From contig UQVQ01000002.1 of the NCBI GenBank assembly GCA_900544595.1, positions 75,690-139,689 of the forward strand: 64,000 nt of DNA. The letters run 5' to 3'. Below are positions 34,181 to 53,292 of the stretch, piece after piece (position 1 is the stretch's first letter; each line of letters opens with the position of its first letter). Both the position numbers and the translations under genes were made by a program. The notes under the pieces are model-generated. The model had not been told where the DNA came from, did not search any database, and saw nothing but the letters and a program-made list of their open reading frames with translations. This DNA comes from an uncultured Bacillota bacterium (GTDB lineage Bacteria; Bacillota; Clostridia; Christensenellales; UBA1242).

Positions 34181-34264
34181 TAACAAGGAATGTTTTGGAT
34201 TTAAACTAAGCATATAGACAAAAGAAGGCTTTTTGTTATAGCCTTCTTCTTTTTATTATTTGTT

Positions 34265-35341
34265 TTACTGATTGTTCGAAAATTGTTTTATGTAATCTTC
34301 GTAAGAAATGCCTTTCTTTTTTAAACTCTCAATTAGAGCAGTATTAAATGCAGTATCCTTGCAATTGTTTTCATCATGTTTTATATACTCACCATGTTCA
34401 TTAATTTCTATTTTTAACATTTTTGACAGCTCTTCAATTGTTATCTTTTTTATGTCCTTATGGTTATCTTCTATATTATGGTCACAAGACAAATCTCTTT
34501 CACCATACTCATCCCCCATAACAAAATATGAACAAATTGATCCTTTATTTCCATAATTGTATCCTGCATTAAAAATAGCTTCAATAAGTCTCAATCTTCC
34601 TTCCGTTGTTGTTTCTTTAATAGAATCCGATAAACAAATTAAAGGCCAATTATCTCTTTCTGGATATTTTTCTGCAATTTTCTTCAATTTTTTAGCAAAT
34701 TTACCTGTTTTTTCGCCAATTTGATCATTATTTTCTTTATTTTGTTTTATTGAAGAAACAATAAAGTTTTCTGTCCTATCTTTAACGTTAGGACATAATT
34801 CAATAATCTCAATAAGAGAAAATCCAAGTTTATTAAGTATTTCCTTGAACTCTATCATTGTATTGTGGGCGTCAACTTCAGCGTCATGTTCACCCTCTTC
34901 GCCCTTTAATTCAAGTTCTTCCAAAATGTTTAATACTGATATTTCTTTTTTAGTATTCTTGTATTCTTTATAAAACAATTTAACATCGTAAAAATCAAAA
35001 TCAATACTTGGTAAATTATATCTTTTACAATCATCATTTAATGCCTTGGCGTCATTATTTAGCGAGTGCCCTAGAACATAATCACAGCTTTCTATTATCT
35101 CCTTAATTTTAGGATAATATTTATTGAAAGTAAGTCTTTCTTCATACTCCTTTTTAGTTCTTGTAAGTATGTGTTTTAATGCCCACCAATCCCATTCATC
35201 ATTAGATATGTATGGATTGATTATAAGATTATTCCTTTCTATTATTTCAAACTTTTCATTAGTTATAACATACCCGAATTCACAAATCTTGCAACCATTT
35301 TTACAACTCGCATATTCTAAATCAAAAAATAAAATTCTCAT
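34265..35341 (-). CDS. DEDD (DnaQ-like) 3'-5' exonuclease with a C-terminal BRCT-like region
   Basis: FFDLE (ExoI), GHSLNNDAKAL (ExoII) and HDAEVDAHNT (ExoIII, DEDDh). Downstream segment ICLSDS....R..LIEAIFNAGYNYGNKGSICSYFVMGDE resembles a BRCT fold pattern. Confidence 0.7.
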   Translation of the reverse strand: MRILFFDLEYASCKNGCKICEFGYVITNEKFEIIERNNLIINPYISNDEWDWWALKHILTRTKKEYEERLTFNKYYPKIKEIIESCDYVLGHSLNNDAKALNDDCKRYNLPSIDFDFYDVKLFYKEYKNTKKEISVLNILEELELKGEEGEHDAEVDAHNTMIEFKEILNKLGFSLIEIIELCPNVKDRTENFIVSSIKQNKENNDQIGEKTGKFAKKLKKIAEKYPERDNWPLICLSDSIKETTTEGRLRLIEAIFNAGYNYGNKGSICSYFVMGDEYGERDLSCDHNIEDNHKDIKKITIEELSKMLKIEINEHGEYIKHDENNCKDTAFNTALIESLKKKGISYEDYIKQFSNNQ

Positions 35342-35357
35342 TAGTTATTTTCCTTTA

Positions 35358-35744
35358 CTATATTTTATCACCATTAAAGATAATGTCATTACCAACATTT
35401 ATTTCTTCAATTAAGTTCTTTTTTTTATAAAACCAATCTTTTTCATTTGTATATCTATCAGAAATATAATTGATATTTTGATTTAATGAACCAACTAATG
35501 CTCTATCGTTATCAATTTTCTGCTCATCAAAATAACCATCAATGATGATATCACATTGACTTTTTAAATTATCTTCAATTTCATTTAATTGATATCCCGT
35601 AAAAAGAATTATGCCTAATTCCAAATTTTTAACTTCTTCAAGTAGTTTAACTAAACCGGTTTGTAAGAGTGGTTCCTCCTCTCTGATACTGATTTTATCA
35701 ATGATATTTCGCAATAGCCAGCAATGAACACTTGCATTGCGCAA
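35358..35744 (-). pseudogene. 5'-truncated NrdG-like (anaerobic RNR activase / 4Fe-4S single-cluster radical-SAM) gene fragment
   Basis: ...EEPLLQ....LLEEVKNLELGIILFTGYQLNEIEDN....CDIIIDGYFDEQK.......GSLNQN aligns by eye with the T4/E. coli NrdG C-terminal two thirds (GGDPL...WTGY...DVIIDG.Y....RGS.NQR). The N-terminal CxxxCxxC segment is missing, and the fragment abuts the tet stop codon. Confidence 0.55.
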
Positions 35745-35748
35745 GACG

Positions 35749-37668
35749 TTACATTATCTTCTGAAACATATGGCGAACCTTATCTAACCGACTATTTGGG
35801 CGGCGAGGTTGTACTACAGGTTCCCCTGAAGTTTCCTGATACCCTTTCAATTCTGTCAAGCAAACGCTTCTTCCATTTGTATAGAAATTCAAATCACTTT
35901 TGTATTCCCCAATCCGTCTTGCTGGTATTTCTCCAGTTAAGATCGCTTCATTATTTTTTATTGAAGTTGTTTCAATTACCGCATCGTATTTCACAGCATC
36001 ATGATAAGCCCGTGAAAGATATTCCTGCGGTGCAAACAGGGTAAAAGAAAGATAGGGTTCTAAAACCTGTGTTCCTGCTTTTTTTAATGCCAGTTCCAGC
36101 ACAATGGGCGCAAGAAAGCGGAAATCTGCCGGAGTACTGACCGGGCTGTAGTAAACACCATATTCAAAACAAATTCTGCAATCTGTTACCTCCCATCCAT
36201 ACACTCCCTGCTCTAATCCATACCGAATCCCTTCCATAACTGCGTTTTGAAAGCTTTGGTTTAAATAACCGAGAGGCACTTTACTTTCATATTCTGTTCC
36301 GCTTCCAACAGGAAGAGGAGTGACAGCCAAACCAATCGACGCCCAAAAGGGATTTGGCGGTACTTCAATATGAATTGTATAATGAGCCTCTTTTCGTGGT
36401 CTCTCCCGATAAATAACGGTAGGCTCTTTTATTGCTACCTCGACACTATATTTTTCATTTAATAAAGAACAAACAACTTCCAATTGTACTTTTCCCAAAA
36501 AGGAAAGAATAATTTCATGAGTAATAGAATCAATCATAAAATGCAGAAGCGGATCAGTATCCGCAATCTCTGTAAGGGCATCCAGTAATGCTTCCCTTTG
36601 CTCTGCTTTGATTGGCTCTATCGTTGTCCGAAAAAGCGGCAGGGGATTATCCGTCCATGCCTTGCGTGGCAATAGTTTTTCATCTCCCAGAACATCATTT
36701 AGTTTTAATGTATTGTCAGATAAAATAACAATCTCCCCGGAATCAGCGGTGTCTGTTGGGACGATTTCTCCATCAAATGGAATTGACATCTCTGTAATTT
36801 TAATTTTTTCCTTTTTTGACAGAAGAATCGTTTCCCGTAAACAAAGCGTACCGCTATACAGCCTTAAATAGCAACGTCGTTTTTTCTGCTCGGTATATTC
36901 AATTTTAAAAACATACCCGCACAGTTCCGATTGACAGTTATCTGTTTTCGATGAAAAAATATCTGTGATTACATCAAGCAATTTTTTTGTTCCGATATTC
37001 TCTTTTGCGCTTCCATGATATACCGGAAAAAAAGTTCCCTGCTGTACCCTTCGCTTTATTTCTTCCTGAAGTTCCCGCAATGTCAAAGGCGCTCCTGAAA
37101 GATATTTTTCTAAAAGATTATCATTCCCGGCAATCACAGCATCCCACTTTTCAAAATCCGCAACGTCGGAAAGTGTTAATTCTGGAAATAAATGAACTTC
37201 CTGCATAACCATCATATCTTCTGTCAATTTTTCTCTGATATTTTGATAAGTCTGTGCAGGAACAAAGCCTTCCTGATCGATTTTATTGATAAAAATAATG
37301 GTTGGTATCTTCATCTTCCTCAGCGCATGGAACAGCACTCTGGTCTGTGCCTGTACTCCATCTTTTGCAGATATTACTAAAATCGCTCCGTCCAGAACCG
37401 ATAAAGAGCGGTACACTTCTGTTATAAAGTCCATGTGTCCCGGTGTGTCTACAAGATTCACTTTGTACTCTTTCCAGTGAAAAGATGTAACGGCAGCCTG
37501 AATGGTAATTCCCCTTTGACGTTCCAAAGCCATAGAATCCGTTCTTGTTGTGCCTTTATCTACATTGCCCGGTTCCATGATTGCCCCGCTTGTATACAGC
37601 AAGCTTTCTGTCAGTGTTGTTTTTCCTGCATCAACGTGTGCAAGAATGCCAATATTGATTATTTTCAT
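35749..37668 (-). CDS. Tetracycline-resistance ribosomal protection protein (Tet(M)/Tet(O)/Tet(W)/Tet(32) group; allele not assignable without a search)
   Basis: 639 aa. [30 protein letters not shown]...[23 protein letters not shown]...[56 protein letters not shown] is nearly collinear with known Tet RPPs. The segment is visibly GC-richer than its surroundings. Confidence 0.95.
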
Positions 37669-37706
37669 GTGTCATCCTCCATTCACAGCCAAAAAAGGCA
37701 TAAAAA

Positions 37707-37739
37707 TCCCCAGCAGCAAAATACTCTTACCGCTGGGGA
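37707..37739 (-). promoter_or_regulatory. Terminator-like attenuator hairpin in the tet leader
   Basis: On the minus strand: CCCCAGC-GGTAAGAGTATTTTGCT-GCTGGGG followed by ATTTTTAT, about 40 nt upstream of the tet ATG. Confidence 0.5.
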
Positions 37740-37906
37740 TTTAATCTTTGGACATACACATAAAAGACATACGCCAACAGACGCTTGTCACTTGTCTTAC
37801 TATGTCAATATATAAGGCAAAAGTATTCTTAAATAGGTACAAAAAACCAAGCCCTTGTTCCAAAGGACATCCCAAAGTTTTTTGTTCCCACTATTTGGTT
37901 ATAGTT

Positions 37907-37930
37907 TTATTTAAGAATACCCTGCCGCAT
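37907..37930 (-). promoter_or_regulatory. Candidate 7-codon leader peptide ORF (MRQGILK) of the tet attenuator
   Basis: AAGGAG RBS 9 nt upstream of ATG CGG CAG GGT ATT CTT AAA TAA. Lies between the predicted promoter and the leader hairpins. Confidence 0.4.
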
Positions 37931-37960
37931 ATTTTTTAACTCCTTTTTGGAAATATCATG

Positions 37961-37990
37961 ATTATAACACTAAACTGTACCCCTTGTCAA
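37961..37990 (-). promoter_or_regulatory. Candidate promoter driving the tet leader
   Basis: On the minus strand: TTGACA (37985-37990), 18-nt spacer, TATAAT (37961-37966). Confidence 0.5.
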
Positions 37991-37998
37991 GGACATTT

Positions 37999-38274
37999 TT
38001 ATTTATTTGTTCTAGGGAACGTCTGTTTGTCTACTTTACAACTTACAATCCCCTCTAATGGATAAATCCCTGTTGTGATATACTCATAATACTCGTTAGG
38101 TGACAACTTTGCCAACTGCCATTGATATCTGCTATTATTATAATAATCCATCCAGTCATCCACGATTGCTTTTACCTCACGATATTTGCTACATTCACTA
38201 ACATCTATCTCATCCTTCATATGTCCAAAAAAGCTTTCCTGTGGTGCATTATCCCAACAGTTTCCTTTCCGGAA
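37999..38274 (-). mobile_element. IS3-family transposase 3' remnant (last ~90 codons only)
   Basis: Reading frame gives FRKGNCWDNAPQESFFGHMKDEIDV...YYNNSRYQWQLAKLSPNEYYEY. This is the conserved RKGNC.DNA..ESFF..LK.E ... L..LSP.EY C-terminus of IS3/IS150-type OrfB. No N-terminal part or inverted repeats were seen. Confidence 0.75.
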
Positions 38275-39434
38275 ATAATCTCACCAGAATCCTCATCAAG
38301 ATTTTCTCTTATTTGTTTAGATATTTCTTTCTTCTCATTTTCAAGTTCTATAAGTTCTGGATTAAACTGAATTTGGTTTAATTCATCAATAATATTTCCC
38401 AAATCCATTCTCATAATTCCATTAATGTTTGATGTTTTGAAATATGTTTTCTTTCTAATTATGTCATTAATATCACTACTTAATTTTTCTAAAACATCTT
38501 TCTTAAACTCATTCTCATCAATAGTAAAATTATAGTTTCCAATCTTTTTAATCAAAAACTCATAATCATTTTTATTATTCTCTATTATAGAAATTTCTTT
38601 TCTGTAATTACTGATTTGTTCATTCAATAATTTCTTATTGTTTTCATGAGACGATATCTGATTTTTTACACTATCAATTTGAACTTGCTCTTTCAATAGT
38701 TTTTGATAATCCAATTTTAACTTTTGGAATTCTTCATCAAAGTTTTCTTTTGTCGCTGTGAAATTTTCAAATGATATTATTTGCTTATCAATTTTCTGTG
38801 AAATATTTATGTAAAAATTATCCACAAGTCTTTCTGGATTGTAATCTGTATTTTTACCATTAATGTTAGGTATCAATCTTAATGGCCTTATTTCTGGGAT
38901 TTTTGGCAATCTATCAAAGACATTATCAATGGCTTTATGAGTTTCGCTTGATACCAATATTTTTTTGCCTTTTTTTGTTAATTGAGCAATTATTTCAGCA
39001 ATAACTTGTGTCTTACCCGTTCCCGGTGGACCTTGCAATAAGAAAATACTTTCACTAGCAACTGCTTTTTTAACAGCTTCCTTTTGTCTATCATTTAAAC
39101 TTTGCAAATTCCATTCAATATCATCTTCTATATTGTGGTTAAGATTTTGTAATGACTTTGGCTCAAACAAATACCTTGACAAATAAGGATTTTTAACAAA
39201 ACCTTTGAAGAATGCGTCCAAAGATTTTTCTTGTCTTTCAATCTTCATTTTTTCTGCAATATTATTATATGTCATAAAACATGGCTTAATATTTTCAAGT
39301 TCTTTTCTTACTTCATCAACACTATTCTTTTCAATTTTAAATAGTATGTTAAATCTTCTAATTGTTTCATTTTCTATTGCTTTATTTATTTTTTCATTTT
39401 TAATATTTAATAGATACTCTTTTGTTTTAAACAA
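38217..39434 (-). pseudogene. Superfamily-1 (Upf1/DNA2-like, AAA_11-type) helicase fragment, 3'-truncated by the IS3/tet insertion
   Basis: Walker A segment LLQGPPGTGKTQVIAEIIAQL followed by KILVSSETHKAIDNV. The coiled-coil-like insert then breaks off near 38275-38290, where the frame runs into the IS3 remnant. No motifs III-VI are present. The frame is open upstream to 39566. Confidence 0.7.
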
Positions 39435-39523
39435 CTCTAAATTAATTTGATTGTTATACTTGTTTTTTAGTTCTTGTGTCTTTGATATTCTCGCTTTATT
39501 GATATTCTCATTTTTTTCTTTTT

Positions 39524-40795
39524 CTAACTTTTCTGCAAATTTTTTGCATTTTTCTTCATTTTTTTGTCAGAAATATCATTTTTTTCATTAAATTCTTTAA
39601 TTTTATTATTTTTTTCTAAATCAAGTTGCAAAGATAAGTCATCTAAATACTCATGAACTTCATCATTAATAATGTTGTTATATTGAGTTTCAACTTTGGC
39701 TTTATCATTCAAGTAATCGTTTTCAAATTCTTTTTCATACTTATCTGTGTTTGGTAAAATATCTTCTGCAAAAATTTTATATCTTTCATCTAATTGAATT
39801 GATTTTATTCCTGTTTGATTATTACTTGGTTCTTGTGCTGTTAAAGAAATGTCCTGTCTAGTAAATCTATTTAATAGTAATTCTTCTTTTGGTTTTCTAT
39901 CTTTTTCTGTCATAGCAGAATAAATTTCTTTTTTATTAAAGTCAACTTCAATGCTTACAAGTGGAAAACTCTCTGCCCCATCAACATTTTCAGTTATAAC
40001 AATTTGGTCATCTCTAACAAGTTCTTTATTTAATAATAATCCACTATATCTTTCTTCATTAAGTCTATAAACATTTCTAGGAATAATAAAAGTATTTAAT
40101 ATTTCACATTTATTAAATCTAATACATTTTTCAGATTGTGCTTCTAAATATTGTTTTCTAAATAATATATAATCTTTCCATTCTTCATAAGTTTGTAATA
40201 CTTTCTTATATTGTTTTACATAGAAAGGACTATTGACTAATCTATAAATAAAATCATTTGTTAAAACATTGCTTGCTGAATATTCATCAATGTTAACACC
40301 AAAATTGGGAACCTTAATTCCATTTGGAAGAACTTTTAATTCAAAAGCAACTGAACAATTACATTGAACACTTATCTCACTAACTTTATCTTCAATTTCA
40401 TCTATAAGTTCAATACCTTTAACGACAAACAAATAGTTTTTAAGACATTTTATATCTCCAATGATAATAATATCTTGACCTTCTGGTAAGAACCTTTTTA
40501 TTAAGGTATCCTTTTCTGGCCTTATGACAACATTTCTATAAATGTAATTTCCCTTTTTATCGCATTCCGCCCTTCTATCAAATGCCGGCATTGAAAAATG
40601 ATATATATTGGTCTTGTATGGGTTAAAACATTGATTCATAAATTCCTTAAAATTTTCAATAGTTGCCTTTTGAGTGTTTCCCATTTTCCTATAAATATTT
40701 GAATATTGCTCAACTAATGATGTGGAAAAATAGTCATCCCAATTTTGACTCCCTTTAACCATATTAAATGTGCAATCTAAAAATAAAAAATTCAT
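39524..40795 (-). CDS. Unknown ~420-aa protein; probably the N-terminal part of the downstream helicase gene, split by a frameshift
   Basis: GGAGGG RBS 5 nt before the ATG at 40795. Its 3' end overlaps the open frame of 38217..39566 by ~40 nt. Inserting one A in the A7 tract (39559-39565) would fuse them. Confidence 0.5.
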   Translation of the reverse strand: MNFLFLDCTFNMVKGSQNWDDYFSTSLVEQYSNIYRKMGNTQKATIENFKEFMNQCFNPYKTNIYHFSMPAFDRRAECDKKGNYIYRNVVIRPEKDTLIKRFLPEGQDIIIIGDIKCLKNYLFVVKGIELIDEIEDKVSEISVQCNCSVAFELKVLPNGIKVPNFGVNIDEYSASNVLTNDFIYRLVNSPFYVKQYKKVLQTYEEWKDYILFRKQYLEAQSEKCIRFNKCEILNTFIIPRNVYRLNEERYSGLLLNKELVRDDQIVITENVDGAESFPLVSIEVDFNKKEIYSAMTEKDRKPKEELLLNRFTRQDISLTAQEPSNNQTGIKSIQLDERYKIFAEDILPNTDKYEKEFENDYLNDKAKVETQYNNIINDEVHEYLDDLSLQLDLEKNNKIKEFNEKNDISDKKMKKNAKNLQKS

Positions 40796-41316
40796 CCTAT
40801 CCCTCCAACACGACATTTGTCAATACTAACCCATTTGCATTATAGCATATAATCAAAAGATTATCTTACTAAAATAAAAAAATCATCAACTTGTGTTGAT
40901 GACCAAAAATTTCTTTTTTCATGCAACACAAACAATGGAGCTAAATCCCATATAATTGAGTTACATACTTATAATTTTATCTATCTGGACTGTAGACCCG
41001 AACTTATAATACTCTCAAGGAAAACGAATACTATAAGATTTATAAAATGTAATTATATTAAATTATGTGCATTAGTTGACCTTCTTACCTGATATCCCTT
41101 GAAATATCTCATCACAACTCTATTATGCAAGAATAGAATAACAAAAACAATATTTTTTGTCAAGTATTACAAGGATTTTTTAATTTTAATTTTTCATTCT
41201 ATTTCGAATATAGCGCTCTCGTGTGTTCATCATTTGAACACGCGGGAATATTTTTATGTAAAAAATTTACCAACTCCAAGAGTTCAGCGTTTGAACTCTT
41301 CAAAAAAATTTACAAG

Positions 41317-41376
41317 AAAAAATAACCCAACACTAGTTGAGTTATTTTCTATATAAGTTATTAAATTTAATATATC
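41317..41376. repeat. Left copy of a ~60-bp direct repeat (terminator hairpin plus 30 conserved nt)
   Basis: AAAAAATAACCCAACACTAGTTGAGTTATTTTCTATATAAGTTATTAAATTT... About 90 percent identical to 46787-46846. Confidence 0.8.
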
Positions 41377-41440
41377 CTCATATATTTAAGGACACTTTCA
41401 TTCAAAAATTTAAGACAGGAAATTGAAAATCAATAAATAA

Positions 41441-41626
41441 TTATTTCTTTTCTTCCCATTTAGAACAAGCTCCATTCATGCAACCTTGGTTTCCATTTCC
41501 TCTTGATTTAATTTTGCAAACGTGTGTGGAACCTTCCCATTTCACAGAACTTCCTTGTCGTTGCGAATTTCCTCCAAAATGCTGACAAGTACAACAACAT
41601 TTTTGACTTACTGGTGTTGAATTCAT
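41441..41626 (-). CDS. Small Cys-rich protein (61 aa, 7 Cys, CCCTC motif)
   Basis: AAGGAG RBS; 27 nt after the GmrSD-like gene. Cys at positions 10, 11, 12, 14, 37, 49 and 53. No family recognised. Confidence 0.5.
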   Translation of the reverse strand: MNSTPVSQKCCCTCQHFGGNSQRQGSSVKWEGSTHVCKIKSRGNGNQGCMNGACSKWEEKK

Positions 41627-41653
41627 TTTTTAACTCCTTTTAATATACATATA

Positions 41654-43516: not shown

Positions 43517-43525
43517 AATCTTCTC

Positions 43526-44506: not shown

Positions 44507-44521
44507 ATATTCTCCTTAATG

Positions 44522-44842
44522 TCAATTGGTTCTATAACCACTTCTTCTTAATGTTTCTTGTAATTTTCTTTTGAATTCTCTTTCATCAACCATATCATCA
44601 AGTTTATAATCAAATCTTGCGCCATTGTAACTTGATGAAGAACGAACATCTTTTGCTCCAGCAGTAGATAAAAAGTTTTGTATCTCTTTTTCAGGGTCAG
44701 CACATTTAATTGTATATCTTACTTCGATTTCGCCACCACAACTTCTTCTTATATAAATATTTCTTGCTCCGCTACGCGAAAGTTGTTCTTTAATTTCATT
44801 CTCTGGTTTTTTAAATTCTACATTAATGTTTGAATATTTCAT
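44522..44842 (-). CDS. Hypothetical 106-aa protein with an internal triplication
   Basis: AAGGAG RBS. The three units are PENEIKEQLSRSGARNIYIRRS / PEKEIQNFLSTAGAKDVRSSSS / DEREFKRKLQETLRRSGYRTN. No family recognised. Confidence 0.5.
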   Translation of the reverse strand: MKYSNINVEFKKPENEIKEQLSRSGARNIYIRRSCGGEIEVRYTIKCADPEKEIQNFLSTAGAKDVRSSSSYNGARFDYKLDDMVDEREFKRKLQETLRRSGYRTN

Positions 44843-44885
44843 TTTAATTTCTCCTTTATAATAACATATTTCTTTTTATTTTGTT

Positions 44886-46151
44886 TTAATTTTTTATAAT
44901 TTTTTTTATATCTTCTGAAATTAGCAACTTTTTCTTGTTTAATTCACTTGCTAGTTTGTCTAATGTGCCACGATTTTCAATTAGTATTTGTTTTACTTGT
45001 GCATAACTCTTTTCTAATTCATCATTAATGGATTTGTTTTGAAAAAATTTTTGCAATTCAGACACTTCGAAAGAAAAATACGAAGAACATTTGTCAAATC
45101 CATTTCCAGCATATTCAATGATAATTCTTTTTACCACTTCGACAGCTCTTTCAATATCTGATGAACAGCCAGCATCAAGTGTGCCGTATTTTATTTCAGT
45201 GGCACATTTTCCACCAAGCAAACATAATACTCTATTTTTCATGGATTTAACAGACTGCCAATAGCTTTCATCTCTGTAATATGCTGTAAAGCCACCAATT
45301 GATGAACCTTCATGCCCACCAATAGAAATCATTGTTACACTTTCTGGTTCCAAAATTTCGGCAATCAAAGCATGCCCAGCTTCATGATAAGCAGTTTGTT
45401 CATTGTCCTCACAAGTTCCATTTTTTATTGTTTCAGGAGCATTGTAAATAGTTCTAATACAAGCTCTTATAATATCATCAAACTCAATTTTATCTTTATT
45501 CTCAAATCCCGCATAAATTCCAGCTTGGTTTATTATTGTTTCAAGTTCCGCACAAGACCTGCCATTTAAAATTCGTGCTAACTGCTTAACATCTAGATTA
45601 GCAACTGCATTCTTTCCACTAAGGTAATGCTTGATTATCATTTCAGCATCTATCCCTTTTGGTGCTTTGATTTCAATACTAGTATCAAACCTTCCAGCTC
45701 TTAGCAAAGAATCAGGGACTAAACACAAATCATTTGCGGTTGCAATCACAAATACTTCAGAAGATTTAACATCATCAATACACGATTGAATAGTTACATA
45801 TTCTTCTGCATTCTTATGGTCTTTGTCTTCGTTTGCAAACTTATCAAAATCATCTAACAAAACTAATGACGGAGCATTGTTTTTTGCATCTTCAAAAGTT
45901 TTTTTGATGAATTTAATAAATTCATCATCTGGCAAATTTTTTCTGCAAACATAACATTTTTTACCACATTCTTCAATAAACGAATTAGCAATCAATGTTT
46001 TGCCTACACCGGGTTCTCCATAAAGTAATAAACCTTTTGGAATTTTGACACCCAATTTTTGATACTTATCACTATTTTTTATTACATCACAAATTCTTGC
46101 AATTTCTAACTTAATAGCATCATATCCAATAACCTTTTCAAAACCATTCAT
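44886..46151 (-). CDS. Soluble FtsH-like AAA+ ATPase / M41 zinc metalloprotease (no transmembrane region)
   Basis: Collinear with the FtsH cytosolic part: KIPKGLLLYGEPGVGKT (Walker A), LVLLDDFD (Walker B), VIATAN (sensor 1), LLRAGRFD (Arg fingers), AYHEAGHALI (HExxH), GCSSDIERA (third-ligand region). The ORF starts directly at the AAA module, with an AGGAGG RBS. Confidence 0.8.
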   Translation of the reverse strand: MNGFEKVIGYDAIKLEIARICDVIKNSDKYQKLGVKIPKGLLLYGEPGVGKTLIANSFIEECGKKCYVCRKNLPDDEFIKFIKKTFEDAKNNAPSLVLLDDFDKFANEDKDHKNAEEYVTIQSCIDDVKSSEVFVIATANDLCLVPDSLLRAGRFDTSIEIKAPKGIDAEMIIKHYLSGKNAVANLDVKQLARILNGRSCAELETIINQAGIYAGFENKDKIEFDDIIRACIRTIYNAPETIKNGTCEDNEQTAYHEAGHALIAEILEPESVTMISIGGHEGSSIGGFTAYYRDESYWQSVKSMKNRVLCLLGGKCATEIKYGTLDAGCSSDIERAVEVVKRIIIEYAGNGFDKCSSYFSFEVSELQKFFQNKSINDELEKSYAQVKQILIENRGTLDKLASELNKKKLLISEDIKKIIKN

Positions 46152-46359: not shown

Positions 46360-46430
46360 ATAACTGATTGAATAATTATATCATTTTGTCAAAGATTTAC
46401 AAATTTTATAATAATAGCTCAATCAGTTAT
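46360..46430. promoter_or_regulatory. 12-bp perfect inverted repeat pair bracketing the putative XRE-gene promoter (candidate operator)
   Basis: ATAACTGATTGA (46360-46371) and TCAATCAGTTAT (46419-46430), with TTGTCA ... TATAAT-like boxes between them. Confidence 0.4.
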
Positions 46431-46471
46431 TTTACATACTCGTTTTAAAATATATGTAAGGAGCAATCATT

Positions 46472-46786
46472 ATGGAAAAAATCACTTATGACGATGTTAT
46501 AACTAGAATGGGGTATTTTAGAAATAAGGCAAATTTGTCTATGAGAGAAACCAGCTTGCAACTAGGATACAACCCACAATTTATGTCCACAATTGAGAAT
46601 AAAACAATAAAATTAAAGGTAAAAACTCTTTTGGAATTTTGTGACCTAGTAGATATTACTCCACAAGATTTTTTCTATATGGGGGAACACTATAACAAAG
46701 AAGATAAAAATGTTTTAGATTTATATAACCATTTAACAGATGATAATAAACAAACAATATTAGATTTAATGAAAAAGTTGAAATAA
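46472..46786 (+). CDS. XRE-family helix-turn-helix transcriptional regulator
   Basis: LSMRETSLQLGYNPQFMSTIENKTIKLKVKTLLEFCDLVDITPQDFF is a typical Cro/C1 HTH. Divergent from the FtsH-like operon. Confidence 0.8.
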   Translation: MEKITYDDVITRMGYFRNKANLSMRETSLQLGYNPQFMSTIENKTIKLKVKTLLEFCDLVDITPQDFFYMGEHYNKEDKNVLDLYNHLTDDNKQTILDLMKKLK

Positions 46787-46846
46787 CAAAAAATAACTCA
46801 ACAAAAATTGAGTTATTTTCTATATAAGTTATTAAATTTTATTTAT
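46787..46846. repeat. Right copy of the ~60-bp direct repeat; also a bidirectional terminator
   Basis: AAAAAATAACTCAACAAAAATTGAGTTATTTTCTATATAAGTTATTAAATTT... Perfect stem AATAACTCAA / TTGAGTTATT at 46791-46816. Confidence 0.8.
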
Positions 46847-46862
46847 CTCTTATACTGAGATT

Positions 46863-47234
46863 TTATAAATTCACCATAATACTTTTTACTCTTGGCATAA
46901 AAACATTGTATATATTCACAAGTTCGTTTGCCACCTTTTCTACATCAAGGTCAAAATCATAATTTGTATAGTTTGTTGTATCAAATCGTGGGTCGTTTAA
47001 TCGGCGAGGGCTTGGTTTTTTGTAATACTTTCCAAATCTACCAATTCTTGTTGCTATTTTTTCGTTATTTCTATCCCAAATAAGTTCATAACCAATTTCG
47101 TTTTCAATCTCTTTTTTATGCGAATAAAGTCTGTCATAAATAGTTTTTGCGGCTATACTTGGAAAAAAAACGCAAATATCTTTTAAATATCCACTTACAA
47201 CTCTTGTGTTTACCATAATTTTATTGAATGACAA
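46863..47234 (-). CDS. DUF4268-like protein, tandem copy A (possibly degenerate)
   Basis: KKEIENEIGYELIWDRNNEKIATRIGRF pattern (E.elG..L.W.r...k..RI), typical of DUF4268 by recollection. About 85-90 percent identical to copy B. Confidence 0.45.
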   Translation of the reverse strand: MSFNKIMVNTRVVSGYLKDICVFFPSIAAKTIYDRLYSHKKEIENEIGYELIWDRNNEKIATRIGRFGKYYKKPSPRRLNDPRFDTTNYTNYDFDLDVEKVANELVNIYNVFMPRVKSIMVNL

Positions 47235-47320
47235 ATCACTTGTTTTACGAACATCAAAATGCTCGCAATTATTTTTATATTTTACAAAGAAATCAGGGTA
47301 ATTTTCTTTAAAACATTGTG

Positions 47321-47755
47321 CTAATTTATCAAAGAAACTCTTCTTATCTTTTCTTTATCTCTCATTTCAGAAACCTCTATTCCTAAAATACTTTTTACTC
47401 TTGGCATAAAAACATTATATATATTCACAAGTTCGTTTGCTACCTTTTTCACATCAAGGTCAAAATCGTAATTTGTATAGTTTGTTGTATCAAAACGTGG
47501 GTCATTTAATCGGCGAGAGCCTTTTTCTGTATAATACTTTCCAAATCTACCAATTCTTGTTGCTATTTTTTCGTTATTTCTATCCCAAATAAGTTCATAA
47601 CCAATTTGTTTTTCAATCTCTTTTTTATACAAATAAAGTTTGTCGTAAATAGTTTTTGCATCTTTATCTCCAAGATACACACAAATATCGTGCAAACAAG
47701 CATAACGGTCAACTCTTACATTTACCATAATTTTACTAAATGTCAAATCGTTCAT
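47321..47755 (-). CDS. DUF4268-like protein, tandem copy B
   Basis: Same family pattern as copy A. Its frame is open upstream to the stop of the preceding 200-aa ORF, and it runs into copy A before a 1-nt deletion shifts the frame. Confidence 0.45.
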   Translation of the reverse strand: MNDLTFSKIMVNVRVDRYACLHDICVYLGDKDAKTIYDKLYLYKKEIEKQIGYELIWDRNNEKIATRIGRFGKYYTEKGSRRLNDPRFDTTNYTNYDFDLDVKKVANELVNIYNVFMPRVKSILGIEVSEMRDKEKIRRVSLIN

Positions 47756-47893
47756 TTTGCGAATATCAAAATGCCCGCAATTATTTTCATATTTTACAAC
47801 AAAATCAGAGTTGTTTTCCTTGAAATATTGTGCTAATTTATCAAAGAAATCTCTTCTTATTTTTTCTTCATCTCTTATTTCAGAAACCTCTAT

Positions 47894-48496
47894 TTATAAC
47901 TCTGGACATATTTTTTCCAATTTTGAAGAAGCTGTTATACCGTGTGGATTTGTTTGTATATCGTTTAAATCTTCATTTTCTCTGTCGTAAATTTCTATAC
48001 CACAATCTTCATATGCTTTTAGCGGATTTTCACGATGTTTTCTGTATCCTAGTGCGTTTAGTTGATTGTTTTCATCTTTTGTTATCCAACAAAGTCGTTG
48101 CTTTGAAATAAGTTCTTTGATTTTTTCAACATCAAGTTTTCCTTCTTTGCAAAGTTTAAGCAGTTTGGTTTTAAAATCAAAAGCAGTCGTCATATGTTCG
48201 TCTACAAAATGTTGATGAACAACTATTTTTGTCCCACCATTTGTTTTAACTGAACTCAACCAATCAAAATCCCTTATGTCTTTGCCTGTCAAACCATAAA
48301 ACTCGTTGTAAGCTTTTACACTTGCTAAATGTTTTGGAAATTTTGATAAAACCCACTCGTCGTGACTTGCTCTATCAAATATCCACTTGTTCGCAACTGT
48401 TGGATTATGAACCATTGCTTGGGTATAATCTAGTAGCATTTTGCACCAAGTATCAAAATCCTCTTCTTTATTCATAAATTTTTCGTTCGTATTCAT
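47894..48496 (-). CDS. Hypothetical protein (200 aa)
   Basis: AGGAGG RBS before the ATG at 48496 (MNTNEKF...). No family recognised. Confidence 0.5.
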   Translation of the reverse strand: MNTNEKFMNKEEDFDTWCKMLLDYTQAMVHNPTVANKWIFDRASHDEWVLSKFPKHLASVKAYNEFYGLTGKDIRDFDWLSSVKTNGGTKIVVHQHFVDEHMTTAFDFKTKLLKLCKEGKLDVEKIKELISKQRLCWITKDENNQLNALGYRKHRENPLKAYEDCGIEIYDRENEDLNDIQTNPHGITASSKLEKICPEL

Positions 48497-48566
48497 AATT
48501 CTTTCCTCCTTTTTGTATATGAAATATGTTATAAAAATTCTCAATTAAAACAAGTAAATTATTTTA

Positions 48567-49010
48567 TCATACATTTTTATTCTTAAAATCTCTTATTTTG
48601 TTTAATGTTATTTCACATCTGTTCCCACCAAAATACTTAAATAATAAATTCTTTAATATTGGTAATTTTGTTACTTCGTAAAATAGAGTTAATGAAGAAC
48701 AAAATTTTATTGAATCTATAAATCCCAATATTTCATAGATAGTAAAGTCTTTTAAATTTAACAAAATATTACAACATTCCAAATATCTATCCCACAAAAT
48801 TTTGTTTTTCGCATATGCCACCGCTTCTTCTATATTTTCAATTCCATAAATATTTGAATATTCACTTCTTCCAAGGCCCTTTAATTGTGGGAATATATAC
48901 CAAATCCAATGTGTTTCCTTATAACCATTTTTTAATTGTTTGATAACATCACAATAAATTTCATTTTGTGCTTTTATAAACCTTTCCAAATTATATTTAT
49001 CATTCTCCAT
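48567..49010 (-). CDS. DUF1810 family protein
   Basis: LERFIKAQNEIYCDVIKQLKNGYKETHWIWYIFPQLKGLGRSEYSNIYGIENIEEAVAY matches the DUF1810 signature (F..AQ...Y......G.K.SHWMW.IFPQ..GLG.S). Confidence 0.75.
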   Translation of the reverse strand: MENDKYNLERFIKAQNEIYCDVIKQLKNGYKETHWIWYIFPQLKGLGRSEYSNIYGIENIEEAVAYAKNKILWDRYLECCNILLNLKDFTIYEILGFIDSIKFCSSLTLFYEVTKLPILKNLLFKYFGGNRCEITLNKIRDFKNKNV

Positions 49011-49022
49011 CAAAACACCTGT

Positions 49023-49484
49023 TTATTGTTTCAAATTTGCAAAAGGCAACTGTCCATATTTGTTTTTAAATTCACACAACAATTCTTTTTTTACTTTTTC
49101 AGAATTTTCACACTTCATATACCATATATGCAAGTCTTCATAATTTTGTATTTGTCCAATTATTCTACCACCGAAGGCAGAAACATTTTTCCCACCCCAA
49201 AACTTGAGATGTTCCAAGACTCTTTTGTAAACAGTTTTAGATTCGCTTTTCCCAATATATAGAACATCCGCATCCTTCAACCATCTGTTTTGCAACTCAT
49301 CAATGGAAACAGCGACTTTTCTATCTCTCCATATCTCTAAATTAACAGCCTCGTTAAAATTTACTTTTCCAAAATCACTAGGAAGAACAATAATATAAAC
49401 TCCATAGTAATTTCCTTTGCTCTCGTTCAAATCTCTCAATGTTCCGCCAAATTCAAAATCTCTATCAAAAAATCTTTTAATCAT
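49023..49484 (-). CDS. Possible GIY-YIG-superfamily nuclease with a ~40-aa insertion
   Basis: GVYIIVL ... VLYIGKSE ... YKRVLEH ... KKELLCEF ... PFAN fit the GIY / YIG / Arg / Glu / Asn order. By-eye assignment only. Confidence 0.4.
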   Translation of the reverse strand: MIKRFFDRDFEFGGTLRDLNESKGNYYGVYIIVLPSDFGKVNFNEAVNLEIWRDRKVAVSIDELQNRWLKDADVLYIGKSESKTVYKRVLEHLKFWGGKNVSAFGGRIIGQIQNYEDLHIWYMKCENSEKVKKELLCEFKNKYGQLPFANLKQ

Positions 49485-49753
49485 TTTTTAATCTCCTTAA
49501 AAAAACAATCTCCTTGCTTTACCTTATATTTTAAGATTAAATCTATCAATTCTCTCAAAAATAAAATCATGTTTTTGTTTTGTAGGCGTTTTGTAAAATG
49601 CGTGATACTAGGAGTATTTACTCCTTTTTCTAAGCACCTTTCACACAAACACCATCTCCCATGACAATGATATTTTTTGTAAACGATTTCAAAATCTTCT
49701 AATTGCGGTTCACTAAAAATTTCGCCACAACACTTACACTTATATAGTGGCAT
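49481..49753 (-). CDS. Small Cys-rich (zinc-ribbon-like) protein
   Basis: MPLYKCKCCGEIF...YHCHGRWCLCERC. Stop overlaps the next start (ATGA). The start codon is uncertain (the ORF track extends to 49813). Confidence 0.35.
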   Translation of the reverse strand: MPLYKCKCCGEIFSEPQLEDFEIVYKKYHCHGRWCLCERCLEKGVNTPSITHFTKRLQNKNMILFLRELIDLILKYKVKQGDCFFKEIKK

Positions 49754-49763
49754 ATAAAATGTT

Positions 49764-50054
49764 TCAGTTCTCTCCACTATTTTTCTCCAAAACAGTTGTG
49801 TTCGTTGGTACACTTCCCCCTAGAAGTGGATAGGACTTCATGTAACAACCTTTACCTTTAATTGTAACAATGTCGCACCCATACTCCCTAAGATAACCAA
49901 TATTGCGAGCAATTGTTTTTCTATCACAAGAAATCCCACAGAATTTGCTAATTTGTTCTGCGATTTTTGTTTGATGCAAAGGACAATTTTCCGAACTTCC
50001 ATATTTTAATGCATCATAAACATATAATATAATAAGTTTTTTGTGTTTTTTCAC
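49764..50054 (-). CDS. Stand-alone winged-HTH protein related to the N-terminus of WYL regulators
   Basis: GTG start with a GGAGGTG RBS. LIILYVYDALKYGSSENCPLHQTKIAEQISKFCGISCDRKTIARNIGYLREYGCDIV parallels residues ~9-66 of the WYL regulator at 43526..44506. Confidence 0.5.
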   Translation of the reverse strand: MKKHKKLIILYVYDALKYGSSENCPLHQTKIAEQISKFCGISCDRKTIARNIGYLREYGCDIVTIKGKGCYMKSYPLLGGSVPTNTTVLEKNSGEN

Positions 50055-50155
50055 TTACACACCTCCACTATTTCAATTATATCATACCACATGAGACAAA
50101 AAGGACGCATATAGTTCTAAAAAAACTTAAATTGGTTTCCATCTTATACATTTCT

Positions 50156-50776
50156 TTAATTTTCCAGCAAATCTTCGATATTACAACCCAAAACTCTTGC
50201 TAGTTTGTAAAGTGTTTCAACTTGTGCTTTGTTTATGTCGTTTCTTCGTTGTTCATACATTTGAATAGAGCGAAGTTCCACTTCTGCAAGACTTGCAAGT
50301 TTGCTTTGAGATAAGCCTCGTGCTTGTCTTATTTTTTTTAGGTTGGTGATTTCAGACTTTTTGAAATATGTGTTCGCTACATCAAAAAACTTTGTTACAT
50401 CGGCTTCGTGCAAGGTTGGATATAGTCTTAAAACTTCTTCAATAGGCAATGAATTATTTATCTTATAGAAAGAATATCCTTTTTTGTGTTGGAATTGTGC
50501 CAAAACCCAGCCAGCCCAATAATATTTATCTTTGTTTATATCTTCTTTGTTTGGAATGGATTTTTTTCTATTATAAATTTCATTCAAATAATCTAATGCA
50601 GAGCAGGTAAGATATTTTGGATTTCCTTTTTCAATTTGTTTTGCCACATTGGAATTGACAAAGGTGTTCCAAAAAATTGTAGGGTTTATTCCAATATCCA
50701 CAGCATGCTCAAACATTACACCCAAATTTTCGGATAGATTTGGTAAATATAAATCGTTATATGATTGAATCGCCAT
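50156..50776 (-). CDS. DUF3791-like N-terminal domain fused to a C-terminal XRE-type HTH
   Basis: C-terminus IRQARGLSQSKLASLAEVELRSIQMYEQRRNDINKAQVETLYKLARVLGCNIEDLL is a classic XRE HTH. It overlaps the upstream DUF3990 gene by 20 nt, and the DUF3990/DUF3791 pairing is common in Firmicutes. Confidence 0.6.
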   Translation of the reverse strand: MAIQSYNDLYLPNLSENLGVMFEHAVDIGINPTIFWNTFVNSNVAKQIEKGNPKYLTCSALDYLNEIYNRKKSIPNKEDINKDKYYWAGWVLAQFQHKKGYSFYKINNSLPIEEVLRLYPTLHEADVTKFFDVANTYFKKSEITNLKKIRQARGLSQSKLASLAEVELRSIQMYEQRRNDINKAQVETLYKLARVLGCNIEDLLEN

Positions 50777-51440
50777 CTTTTAACCCCTTTCTCATAATAT
50801 CCACTACAAATATATCATTGGTTAGTGTCGCCGACTTTCTAGTACCTTTCAAATAATCTTCTCGTGCCTTTTCATCTCTTGCTTTTCTTTTTGTAAAGTA
50901 TTCCAATCTGTCTGCAGTTTCAAAACCTTCAAAATGAAGTTTACTAAATGCAAGTTCGCTAACTATTACAACTTGCTTTCCAAGTTGACCTAATTCCATA
51001 GCTTGACTTAATTTTCTAACAGGAATTGTATTGTTTACAAAATCTCTTGCAAAACTAAAATATGAGTCGTCTGCTCTAAACCCAATAACTATATCGTAAT
51101 TATTTACATCAATGTAAAAGTTTTTGAGCAAGTATTCTTTTGCTTGAATAGATATATCATTGCTCAAATCAAAAGTTCTAAATTTTAAAAGTATTGCAAT
51201 CCAGTTCAGTATTGAATATCTTTTATCTGTTAAATCTAGAATTTTAAGCCCAGACAAATCAATAGAATATTTATTTGCAAATCCATTATTTTCGTTATTA
51301 CTGCAAGACCACTCTTTTGCAAGTTCCAAACTTTCTGTGCAATAAAATCCAAAACCATAATCATTTTCGGCTTTCCCACCGTGATAATATGGTTTTTCAA
51401 TAATATCTTTTGAACCGTGATAAATAACCAACTTTGACAT
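50757..51440 (-). CDS. DUF3990 domain protein (ADP-ribosyltransferase-like H-Y-E motifs by eye)
   Basis: MSKLVIYHGSKDIIEKP...DYGFGFYCTES is typical of DUF3990 N-termini; AAGGAG RBS. Confidence 0.7.
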   Translation of the reverse strand: MSKLVIYHGSKDIIEKPYYHGGKAENDYGFGFYCTESLELAKEWSCSNNENNGFANKYSIDLSGLKILDLTDKRYSILNWIAILLKFRTFDLSNDISIQAKEYLLKNFYIDVNNYDIVIGFRADDSYFSFARDFVNNTIPVRKLSQAMELGQLGKQVVIVSELAFSKLHFEGFETADRLEYFTKRKARDEKAREDYLKGTRKSATLTNDIFVVDIMRKGLKDGDSII

Positions 51441-51468
51441 CTTCTTCTCCTTTTAATCTATGCTATTA

Positions 51469-51576
51469 TATCATTACAATGACACATTGTCAATCAATTA
51501 TGACATTTTCTATCATTACAATGATATATCTGCATTTCAACCAATCACGAATATTAAATTTATATCATTACAATGA
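51469..51576. promoter_or_regulatory. Three direct copies of a 14-bp motif TATCATTACAATGA upstream of the DUF3990 operon
   Basis: Exact copies at 51469-51482, 51511-51524 and 51563-51576. Each contains the inverted half-sites TCATT / AATGA. Confidence 0.45.
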
Positions 51577-52495
51577 TACATTATGAATTATTGTCTTTAA
51601 TAATCATATTAAAACCACTTTGTTAAACTTACAAAGTTTTAGGCAGTTCAAGAGCAACCAATTTTAGTAAAAACATCACATTTGCTGTCAATTGCTGTCA
51701 TTTTTTCTTATCAAAAGACAGCAAATATTTTCTTATATCGCTAAAAGCCTTTATTTTACTGATGTTTTGATGTATAGAGCACACACTCTATTTTACTAGA
51801 ACCCGACATGGGTAAAGTATGGGTTTAGTTACTGGTAATTCTAAAAAGCGCCTCTTAAAATGTTTGTAGTGTATCAAGTGAAAACAAGTTTGAATTAAGA
51901 AATATCAAACTAAATCAAAAATAAGGCATATAAATATCATTAAGCTGGCAAGTGATGTCATTCCCTTATCCAAATTCCTTAGATACACTAAAAACGAATT
52001 AAAAAAGGCAATGCAAAATGACAATAAGATTTTAGTTGTATATTGGAATGGCGAATAAAAAAGCCCAAAGCCCGACTAGGGGTTAGCACTAGTAGATTAG
52101 ATTTTATGGCATAGAGAAATTTCTCAGTCTTTTTAATTCCAAGTTTACAAAAAGGAGTTAAAAATTATGCAAAAACTAGAGATTGAATTTGAAAACGAAT
52201 TAGATTTAACTTTGCTAGACAATGAATTTTTTGTTGCAATGCTAAATCAGATTATGCTTTTCAAAAAATGCGAGGTGCAATATTGAGATCATGGCGTGTG
52301 CTTGTCTTGATACAAGTATTATTTCTTTCGGTTACAGAGCATAAACGAAAACTCTTTCTTGTCAAGGATAAAATGTATTGTTCCACAACCCTTGACAAGA
52401 AAAGAAAAATAATAAATAAAAATATTTTAATCCCTTTTCGTTTCTTTTCGCTCTGTCGAAAGACAAAAATTAAACTAAATAAAAGGAGAAAAATA

Positions 52496-53190
52496 TGAAA
52501 ACAGCAGTAAATATATGCATATAGTTCAGATAGTCAAACTGAACAAAGTATAGAGAACCAATTAAGAGTATGCAAAGATTATGCCCAAAAGAATGATATT
52601 GTCATTGTTGATACATACATAGATAGAGCCATGTCAGGCACAAATGATAATCGTATCGCATTCCAAAAAATGATTAAAGATAGTAGTAATCATCAATTTT
52701 CTATCGTTCTTGTTTACAAGTTGGATAGATTTTCGAGAAATAAATACGAAAGTGTTATTCACAAGAAAACATTAAAGGACAATGGGGTTAAAATCATATC
52801 TTGTATGGAAAACATCCCGGACACGCCAGAGAGAACTTTAATGGAAGCATTACTTGAAGGATTTAACAAATATTTCAGTGAAGAACTAACTCAAAAAGTA
52901 AATCGTGGACTTAAAGAAAGCTGGTTTAAAGGTAATGCTACTGGCGGACAACAATTTTTACGAAAACAAGTATTTGAAGATATGAGTGATATAAAAGATA
53001 CAAAAACTTGTGATAAATACTTTTGTAAGACAAATATACCTCTATAAAGATAAAATCATAATACTTTTTAATTTTGCAACACCACCAGACAAACCAAAAC
53101 TAACAGTTGAAGAAAACATAAAAATAGCAGAACAAATAAACTCTGCTTTATCTAAAACCAATGGTTCGCGCATTAAACTTCCGTCCGCAC
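52496..53190 (+). pseudogene. Decayed serine recombinase (resolvase-domain) gene
   Basis: ATG at 52496 gives MKTAV, then a +1 shift restores IYAYSSDSQTEQSIENQLRVCKDYAQKNDIVIVDTYIDRAMSGTNDNR...LVYKLDRFSRN (catalytic Ser/Arg region). Beyond ~53000 only a short C-terminal-like piece (FVRQIYLYKDKIIILFNF) remains. Most of the recombinase/zinc-ribbon region is missing. Confidence 0.75.
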
Positions 53191-53199
53191 CAAAAAAAA

Positions 53200-53225
53200 C
53201 CGTTTCCTTTGAAACGGCTTTTTTA
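53200..53225. terminator. Bidirectional rho-independent terminator at the right island edge
   Basis: Stem CCGTTTC / GAAACGG flanked by A8 and a T-run. Confidence 0.65.
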
Positions 53226-53292
53226 TTTTATTTAGATATACTTAAACGCGAAAAATTTTTATATGATAATATTTACTTTGCAATAATATTTC

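Follow-up and report, generated by a model that had tools for sequence, protein, structure and literature searches.

Genomic islands linked to tRNA genes have an atypical composition, lie 3' of a tRNA gene, are absent from related genomes and carry remnants of mobility genes, and defense genes are also found clustered in islands that occupy variable hot spots. For integrative and mobilizable elements (IMEs), tandem accretion and decay have been described (Guedon et al., 2017; PMC5704250), and the GmrSD enzyme BrxU occurs in islands regulated by the WYL protein BrxR (PMC9122601; PMC8565348). The locus compared here with these systems lies in a stretch of 64,000 nucleotides from an uncultured Bacillota bacterium (Clostridia; Christensenellales; UBA1242; assembly GCA_900544595.1, contig UQVQ01000002.1, positions 75,690 to 139,689 of the forward strand), hereafter called the window, whose positions are used throughout. 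Downstream of a tRNA-Leu(UAA) gene, the segment from 34.2 to 53.2 kb of the window is an AT-rich accessory island that is compositionally foreign and real. It is probably a mosaic, largely decayed phage-defense island that also carries a tetracycline-resistance gene, built by the serial acquisition of modules and not by one integration at tRNA-Leu.

The island resembles tRNA-linked islands in its atypical composition, its position 3' of a tRNA gene, its absence from related genomes and its remnants of mobility genes. It differs from them in having neither a tyrosine integrase by the tRNA gene nor a duplicated tRNA 3' end; moreover, its tRNA-proximal gene comes from an operon that is not tRNA-linked elsewhere, and the tRNA joint looks secondary. 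As in defense islands of variable hot spots, a GmrSD enzyme, a WYL regulator, an MkoA-like helicase and a PDC-M42-like pair are clustered. The likeness to decayed IMEs and to cis-mobilizable elements (CIMEs) comes from relatives, which carry elements with a MobL relaxase and a tyrosine integrase, in tandem with other elements, at a non-coding sequence designated element X. The window has the joints but neither the integrase nor the relaxase, and it contains a single full copy of X, so that the attachment (att) sites attL and attR have not both been kept around each remnant. In common with BrxR-regulated islands, one operon of the window has a WYL/WCX regulator beside GmrSD, but it has no BREX genes, and it adds a soluble FtsH-like metalloprotease, a small variable protein, a Cys-rich protein of 61 amino acids (aa) named Cys61, and a divergent XRE regulator.

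Composition and Borders of the Island

The GC content of the island (34181–53230) is 29.7%, against 35.3% in the left flank and 36.2% in the right flank, and in 66% of its 2-kb windows the GC content is under the lowest value recorded among 78 flank windows. The L1 distance of tetranucleotide usage to the flank profile is 0.37–0.46 for the island versus 0.152 ± 0.022, with a maximum of 0.195, for flank windows, which places the island more than 10 standard deviations (SD) away from the flanks. The module that comprises a tet gene and an insertion sequence (IS) remnant is a compositional exception within the island, with 39.1% GC. A first-pass annotation, made from the sequence alone, had proposed a ~19-kb AT-rich accessory island 3' of tRNA-Leu(UAA) and suggested a sliding-window GC and k-mer analysis to check it; the shift turned out to be large, and the proposal stands on GC content, on tetranucleotide usage and on absence from related species. 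The opposite outcome, namely relatives carrying the same block in the same place with host-like composition, was not what was found.

The left border is marked by three tRNA genes detected with ARAGORN and Rfam, tRNA-Gly (33715–33789, minus strand), tRNA-Cys(GCA) (33967–34041, plus strand) and tRNA-Leu(UAA) (34045–34130, plus strand), the last two being the left landmarks of the island. Directly past tRNA-Leu lies an intrinsic terminator (34136–34178, plus strand; fold −24.3 kcal/mol, z −7.5). The strong hairpin announced by the first-pass annotation is thus present, whereas its stem, given as 14 bp, has 19 pairs when A-U and G-U extensions are included. A second hairpin (34217–34247, minus strand; −13.8 kcal/mol, z −4.0) terminates the first gene of the island, which encodes an exonuclease and ends at 34265. 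The tRNA-Leu/exonuclease border is spanned at 99–100% identity by four other contigs (L008, L012, L013 and L014; L numbers denote the contigs and loci compared) and the right border, at the same identity, by three more (L001–L003). Since both borders are found in independent assemblies from several samples, the arrangement is not an assembly artifact.

Short-word BLAST and a repeat finder, applied as far as 57 kb, did not recover the tRNA-Leu 3' end as a direct repeat and gave only AT-rich chance matches of 10–15 nt, in agreement with the first-pass annotation, which had seen no such repeat at the right border; the same search found no long border repeat. Profile searches of the window detected no tyrosine integrase, the only recombinase being the stump of a serine integrase, and genes for phage structure or conjugation were likewise not detected. 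When the island was compared by megablast with plasmid and phage collections, nothing matched except tet(W), at ~72% identity.

Gene content was established by Pfam, PADLOC and NCBIfam profile searches. Essentially all the genes listed earlier, from the exonuclease to DUF1810, were recovered in this way, with a radical-SAM fragment and two DUF4268 fragments as additions. The candidate defense genes, identified by PADLOC or Pfam, are clustered: GmrSD, WYL, the MkoA-like helicase, an IetA-like AAA protein and PDC-M42A/B. Genes of the island described below lie on the minus strand unless otherwise indicated.

A Helicase Operon Wrecked Next to tRNA-Leu

The tRNA-proximal gene codes for a DEDDh (RNase_T) exonuclease (34265–35341) and is apparently intact. 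It had been regarded as free-standing cargo, a view that must be abandoned, as in relatives it closes a six-gene operon (L015–L018 and L031/L032). In order, this operon encodes an SF1 helicase of 1441–1445 aa, proteins of 722 and 366 aa, a 608-aa ClpB-like AAA_2 ATPase, a 181-aa radical-SAM protein and the DEDDh exonuclease. In six related species the exonuclease is 89–98% identical to that of the window, with the radical-SAM gene before it and X, not a tRNA gene, after it, and none of the eight species representatives that have the gene carries a tRNA beside it. The breakpoint of the tRNA-Leu/exonuclease joint coincides with the exonuclease stop codon. Because the exonuclease belongs to an operon that lacks a tRNA elsewhere, this joint would be a secondary rearrangement rather than an att site.

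As judged from their homology to relatives, which runs from 40847 to 38255 and from 35691 to 34280, the exonuclease and the neighboring radical-SAM and helicase fragments are the remains of one operon. The radical-SAM gene, intact in L018 (181 aa), is reduced to an NrdG-like C-terminal fragment of 128 aa (35358–35744; Pfam Fer4_12; 118 of 181 aa) cut by the tet insert. Beyond the insert lies an MkoA-like SF1 helicase remnant (38217–40816; Pfam, PADLOC) that represents the N-terminal ~830 aa of the 1441–1445-aa protein; it was truncated by the insert and then split into two open reading frames (ORFs; 39524–40816 and 38217–39434). The helicase ORF is intact in L017, L018 and L032, and L030 keeps an unsplit remnant of 869 aa. 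The intact operon occupies positions 21–11073 of L018, its counterparts in the window being 34265–35744 and 38217–40816.

The 1445-aa helicase of relatives matches the PADLOC model of MkoA with an E value of 3e-89, and the fragments in the window match it as well. In Mokosh type I, however, the MkoA helicase occurs together with the PLD nuclease MkoB, and the MkoB/PLD partner is missing both from the window and from the intact L018 operon. No known defense system of like composition was matched by the six-gene operon.

The Tet Insert

The helicase operon is interrupted by a 2.56-kb insert with 39% GC (35692–38254, minus strand), whose breakpoints were set by the loss of homology to relatives and which stands in place of ~7 kb of the operon. 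It holds a 73-aa remnant of an IS3-type rve_2 transposase (37999–38220; Pfam), a tet leader region and a tet gene for a full-length ribosomal-protection protein of 639 aa (35749–37668; NCBIfam NF033148, 1195 bits). No terminal repeats were found around the insert. As on the IS-bounded inserts that carry Tet(M), Tet(O) or Tet(W), a full-length protein above its family cut-off is adjacent to an IS3-type remnant; the insert of the window differs from those by the reduction of the transposase to a stump and by the divergence of its Tet protein, with aa identities of at most 72% in PLSDB and a score below the Tet(M) allele cut-off. The protein passes the TetM/W/O/S family model, is below the cut-offs of the Tet(M) and Tet(Q) models, and is equidistant from TetO and TetM. 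With best identities in PLSDB of 71.6% to tet(O/32/O) and 70% to tet(W), a comparison outside which the chromosomal-only classes tet(44), tet(36) and tet(T) lie, it may constitute an unnamed class.

L030, which comes from another sample, contains this insert at 98.9–100% identity, and the junctions are the same. Outside the insert, identity to L030 drops to 96.7% for the exonuclease and to 85.5% for the N-terminal part of the helicase, and the L030 exonuclease is followed by X and not by tRNA-Leu. These features indicate that the tet insertion would be a single event, disseminated afterward by recombination between homologous flanks, and that the tRNA-Leu/exonuclease joint of the window would be a later rearrangement.

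The FtsH-like Operon

The segment 41441–46151 is apparently a separate, portable and intact defense operon, as suggested by its conservation in other contexts. Transcribed toward the helicase remnant, its genes encode a soluble FtsH-like AAA+M41 protein (44886–46151; Pfam), a small protein, p106 (44522–44842), a WYL/WCX regulator (43526–44506; Pfam WYL and WCX) that adjoins GmrSD, the GmrSD type IV restriction enzyme itself (41654–43516; Pfam GmrSD_N and GmrSD_C, that is, DUF262 and DUF1524 domains) and Cys61 (41441–41626), the last gene. A divergent XRE-type regulator (46472–46786, plus strand; Pfam) is part of the module, as its position beside the FtsH-like gene is kept at 86–99% in L036 and L042. 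From 46795 to 41175 the window is 94.6–96.5% identical to L042–L045, in which the neighbors differ on both sides; ORF lengths are equal except for the small gene, p79 in those operons versus p106 in the window. The L042 copy of the set spans 6810–12073.

More distantly related versions, in L036 and L040, share the XRE regulator, the FtsH-like protein, the small protein and the WYL regulator, and vary in their nuclease. It is GmrSD in L040 (8001–12317), whereas in L036 (9375–14849), where the operon adjoins Cas9, a DEDDh-like protein and a PDDEXK_4 protein (PADLOC PDC-S26) are found. The FtsH-like protein aligns over the entire cytosolic part of FtsH but is devoid of the membrane anchor, and a Walker A motif, an arginine-finger region and the HEAGH motif can be read from its sequence. 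Relatives of ~421 aa number in the thousands; on plasmids, the sole decent match (37%) is on Butyrivibrio pCY186, in an unrelated neighborhood.

WYL regulators have been described beside GmrSD-type enzymes (PMC9122601; PMC8565348), which makes a WYL-repressed type IV restriction operon the most likely reading. The operon thus probably represents a restriction system of this type directed against modified phage DNA. It is also possible that the XRE/FtsH-like/small protein/WYL set, with its varying nucleases, is an undescribed regulated defense module.

Element X and the Mobile Elements at Its End

In the window, the GmrSD operon is joined to the helicase operon by element X (41184–41452, minus strand), a non-coding sequence of 270 bp in which an AT-rich stretch is combined with a terminator hairpin and two GTTCA-N5-TGAAC palindromes. 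Copies that are 81–88% identical occur in at least 10 loci, L015, L016, L018–L022, L030, L032 and L042 among them. Seven relatives have X after the exonuclease gene, among them two whose exonuclease protein shows just 50% identity; in L042 X comes after Cys61, and in L032 after a different gene. It is conserved across species above the neighboring protein genes, and its position is always at the end of a putative defense operon.

One full and one partial copy of X are present in the window, and none lies between the exonuclease and tRNA-Leu. The partial copy (46785–46854, minus strand) contains only the AT-rich part and the terminator hairpin; it is a bidirectional terminator and marks a module boundary, as homology to L036 and L042 stops at 46791–46795. 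It was also considered as a second empty attachment site and was rejected as such, since it holds the terminator part of X only.

In L032, a 4.8-kb segment occupies precisely the space from the end of X to the upstream region of the helicase gene, a point across which the window is contiguous. Its genes encode a 153-aa protein, a MobL relaxase, an 87-aa protein (p87), a tyrosine integrase and a KilA-N protein, and an imperfect GAAAA(A)TT(T)AAA repeat of ~12 nt is found at both junctions in this one occupied-versus-empty comparison. MobL, p87, the tyrosine integrase and KilA-N are found next to the same operons and X in L032 and L042–L044. In L015, L018 and L042, the elements located after X begin alike, with a common left end, GTTTTCTCGT plus a hairpin, after which L018 and L042 have intact large serine recombinases. 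From these arrangements we infer that the distal end of X (about 41184–41200) is a candidate insertion site for MobL/tyrosine-integrase elements, empty in the window.

The small element that follows the operon and X in L042 (12342–16900) has a large serine recombinase of the DUF4368 type and lies directly against tRNA-Thr and tRNA-Ser genes, at their 3' ends, forming another tRNA-adjacent array.

The Right Part of the Island

Beyond the partial copy of X, a decayed stretch (46863–50054, minus strand; Pfam, repeat finder) consists largely of gene fragments. Two C-terminal fragments of DUF4268 proteins, of 123 and 144 aa (46878–47899; Pfam), form a 510-bp tandem duplication with 86–90% identity, full-length relatives in other genomes having 374–376 aa. 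The stretch also encodes a DUF1810 protein (48567–49013; Pfam), a 216-aa protein, a 153-aa protein and a 96-aa helix-turn-helix (HTH) fragment of a WYL-type regulator (49764–50054), which matches only the N-termini of WYL genes.

Next comes a two-gene module (50152–51823; Pfam; PADLOC PDC-M42A/B) composed of a DUF3990 gene (50757–51440) and an HTH/DUF3791-like partner (50156–50776; both Pfam). In an unrelated and very common gut Firmicute, two genes inserted between housekeeping genes are 94–96% identical to the pair at the nucleotide level, and this sharing is the reason why short-read contigs break at 51045. Three 29-nt repeats (TTATATCATTACAATGAYAYAT...) lie upstream of the pair at 51466–51588, spaced by 42 and 52 nt; they are probably operator sites, and they are kept together with the module in the unrelated organism. 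Scans of viral contigs with the DUF3990 protein and the 216-aa protein returned nothing.

The island ends with the remnant of a phage-type large serine integrase (52496–53200, plus strand). Comparison with an intact 524-aa phage integrase bears out the earlier description of a frameshifted and internally deleted recombinase: the stump retains residues about 2–150, residues about 155–445 (~300 codons) are gone, a frameshift lies near codon 6, the catalytic Arg of YARYSS is missing, and the C-terminal motif lies in another frame. The closest relatives are gut phage integrases, at ~55% identity.

The Locus in Related Species

To the left of the tRNA genes lies a gene for a KwaA-like membrane protein (33077–33631), and the gene for SSB (55338–55994) lies to the right of the island. 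In L023/L024, whose KwaA-like protein is 84% identical, the order is SecDF, ankyrin, KwaA-like, one acetyltransferase, SSB, deacetylase and HtrA, with no island; in L025 (65% identical), the KwaA-like gene is followed by LigD, a small gene, tRNA-Leu/Cys/Gly and SSB, again with no island. These contexts define the conserved backbone as running from the KwaA-like gene to SSB (33631 ... 55338). The content between the two genes is different in every species compared, and the whole gap, tRNAs included, is rearranged between species. The KwaA-like gene itself is kept at the same backbone position throughout the lineage (55–98% identity, 74 clusters); it is below the NCBIfam cut-off and is an orphan, with no KwaB partner.

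The right landmarks of the island are a LysR gene (53293–54201, minus strand; Pfam) and a divergent AAA_28 gene (54257–54895, plus strand; Pfam). The pair (53293–54895) has an intermediate GC content of 32.3% and is conserved at 63–80% in relatives, but its position shifts between species. In L035, which has no island, both tRNA-Cys/Gly/Val, to one side, and tRNA-Val/tRNA-Leu(UAA), to the other, lie less than 3 kb from it; in L033 it is found in another context, on a contig that stops just beyond LysR. Housekeeping genes had been thought to resume at LysR, whereas by synteny the backbone resumes only at SSB (55338). The comparison proposed with the island, a search for an empty tRNA-Leu/LysR junction, was successful in part: the block is absent from L023/L024, L025 and L035, but all of these are other species, and L035 offers no clean empty site.

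Origin of the Island

Separate modules would have been gathered by serial acquisition and recombination in the rearrangement-prone gap between the KwaA-like and SSB genes. These modules would be the six-gene helicase operon, the IS remnant with the tet insert, which would have destroyed that operon, the XRE | FtsH-like–p106–WYL–GmrSD–Cys61 operon that ends in X, the stretch of gene fragments, the DUF3990/HTH pair, near-identical in an unrelated gut bacterium, and the phage-type serine integrase stump. X would be a recurrent joint between such operons, and MobL/tyrosine-integrase elements or recombination between copies of X would probably shuffle the operons between genomes. As there is no functional recombinase in the window, the island would now be fixed and would spread by homologous recombination only. 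The first-pass annotation had likewise considered the element immobilized, which fits the lack of a working recombinase in the window, and its mosaic also stands, but the minimum of three acquisitions that it proposed has risen to at least six modules. Its implied picture of a single element reaching from the tRNA to the dead recombinase is not supported, as the stump is one of these modules and shows no link with the tRNA-proximal 17 kb.

A single element, such as a prophage or the remnant of an integrative and conjugative element, might nevertheless have been inserted 3' of tRNA-Leu by a large serine recombinase that was lost later, with a few further genes as subsequent gains. The recombinase stump at the exact right edge and the tRNA at the left edge are what this scenario would predict, and the missing repeat would be accounted for, since long direct repeats are not left by serine recombinases. 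It is largely refuted by the tRNA-proximal 12.5 kb, which are two operons found elsewhere in other contexts without this recombinase, and the exonuclease/tRNA joint differs from that of every relative, including L030 with its identical tet insert. Large serine integrases are not known to target tRNA genes, which also counts against an insertion of this kind, as do the lack of phage structural or conjugation genes and of any matching phage or plasmid record, and the scenario is improbable. A tandem accretion of two MobL/tyrosine-integrase IMEs that carried the defense operons has a better claim to consideration and is possible, if not likely; their backbones would have been lost, as in CIMEs, together with the outer attR at the tRNA-Leu joint. 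The operons of L032 and L042 lie directly downstream of a MobL–p87–integrase–KilA-N backbone and end with X, immediately past which the next element begins, a pattern described for IMEs (PMC5704250). However, two independent clean deletions of the backbones would be required, the X copy at 46785–46854 is the terminator part alone, and the repetition of the X tail at the KilA-N/helicase junction of L032 is better explained by the insertion of a 4.8-kb element into X than by an element that takes in the operon.

An alternative in which the lineage had the block from the start and the relatives compared have lost it, its low GC resulting from gene function or strand bias and not from a foreign source, is very improbable. 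It is true that the island-less genomes are all of other species, that every same-species contig reaching the island carries it, and that its genes are nearly all on one strand, which inflates skews. Nevertheless, modules are found at other chromosomal places in relatives with 90–97% nucleotide identity, the DUF3990 pair is common to an unrelated organism at 94–96%, and the identity gradients partly show a conflict of island genes with the core-gene phylogeny; the 39% GC of the tet insert, the tetranucleotide distance from the flanks, the pseudogenes and the IS remnant also argue against ancestry. Least credible of all, and extremely improbable, is a chimera of assembly or binning, joined at repeated tRNA genes, in which the island would come from another organism. 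Many metagenome contigs do break inside tRNAs, at the tet junction and in DUF3990, and the contig of one relative (5.8 kb, probably mis-binned) is labeled Cyanobacteria. These breaks coincide with sequences shared with other organisms, as expected of de Bruijn assemblers, and the contigs that span the left and right borders come from several samples and assemblers.

Several observations weigh against the serial acquisition of modules and the roles assigned to them. No same-species genome without the island was found, so that every absence is cross-species, and the island-less comparisons are distant, with 65–84% aa identity for the KwaA-like protein and 63–69% for LysR; loss in relatives may therefore be a possibility for some modules. 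The one contig of a 99%-identical strain that crosses the left border (L008) has the identical tRNA-Leu/exonuclease joint, and in L035 the tRNA-Leu gene is directed away from LysR, hence the lack of a clean empty site. The WYL protein, compared with the solved BrxR and CapW structures, had no sequence match to any solved structure. The att core proposed at X is short, AT-rich and imperfect. X had no match in Rfam at gathering or E ≤ 1 thresholds apart from a chance miRNA match, and alignment folding showed its hairpins to be invariant with essentially no covariation, which gives no independent support for a function; for these reasons X has been treated as a DNA site and terminator.

Although the serial acquisition of modules remains the preferred explanation, a wider generalization can be formulated only tentatively and is rather unlikely to be correct as a whole. 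The defense operons of the lineage would be exchangeable cassettes ending in X, which would serve both as terminator and as docking site for the MobL/tyrosine-integrase elements that move them, and two of these cassettes would be undescribed defense systems. The first would be the XRE/FtsH-like/small protein/WYL set, acting as a sensor-regulator that drives swappable nucleases, and the second the six-gene helicase/ClpB-like/radical-SAM/DEDDh operon; taken jointly with the generalization, these assignments are just as doubtful.

Other Features of the Window

Another low-GC patch, with 31–33% GC, is present in the left flank (21000–25000), near the genes for a release factor, PrmC and L31. A tmRNA gene, another classic target of integration, lies on the minus strand at 11916–12266 and specifies the tag ADNRNLAVAA. 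A melainabacterial host, suggested by the related contig labeled 'Cyanobacteria bacterium UBA4641', was considered and rejected, since proteins exactly matching PNPase and S15 of the window have been deposited from metagenome-assembled genomes labeled Firmicutes, Bacillota, Eubacteriales or Christensenellales; the closest species representatives are for the most part labeled uncultured Clostridia. The public gene calls of L001 for GlnS and PolA (58752–60443 and 60527–63079) read through two TGA codons, which looks like an artifact of gene calling with code 4 on low-GC contigs. An alternative genetic code was considered and rejected, as 9 of the 52 long ORFs terminate in TGA and translation table 11 leaves the genes intact.

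Significance

The island is ordinary in kind, and it shows how a tRNA-linked hot spot of an uncultured gut bacterium gains and erodes defense genes. The junctions of the tet insert are identical in two different genomic contexts, and the insert would illustrate resistance gained at the cost of defense, with a divergent tet gene spreading in the lineage by knocking out a putative defense operon. Element X provides a handle for finding defense cassettes and small mobilizable elements in poorly known genomes, and the XRE/FtsH-like/WYL set with its interchangeable nucleases, as well as the six-gene helicase operon, are candidates for the discovery of defense systems.

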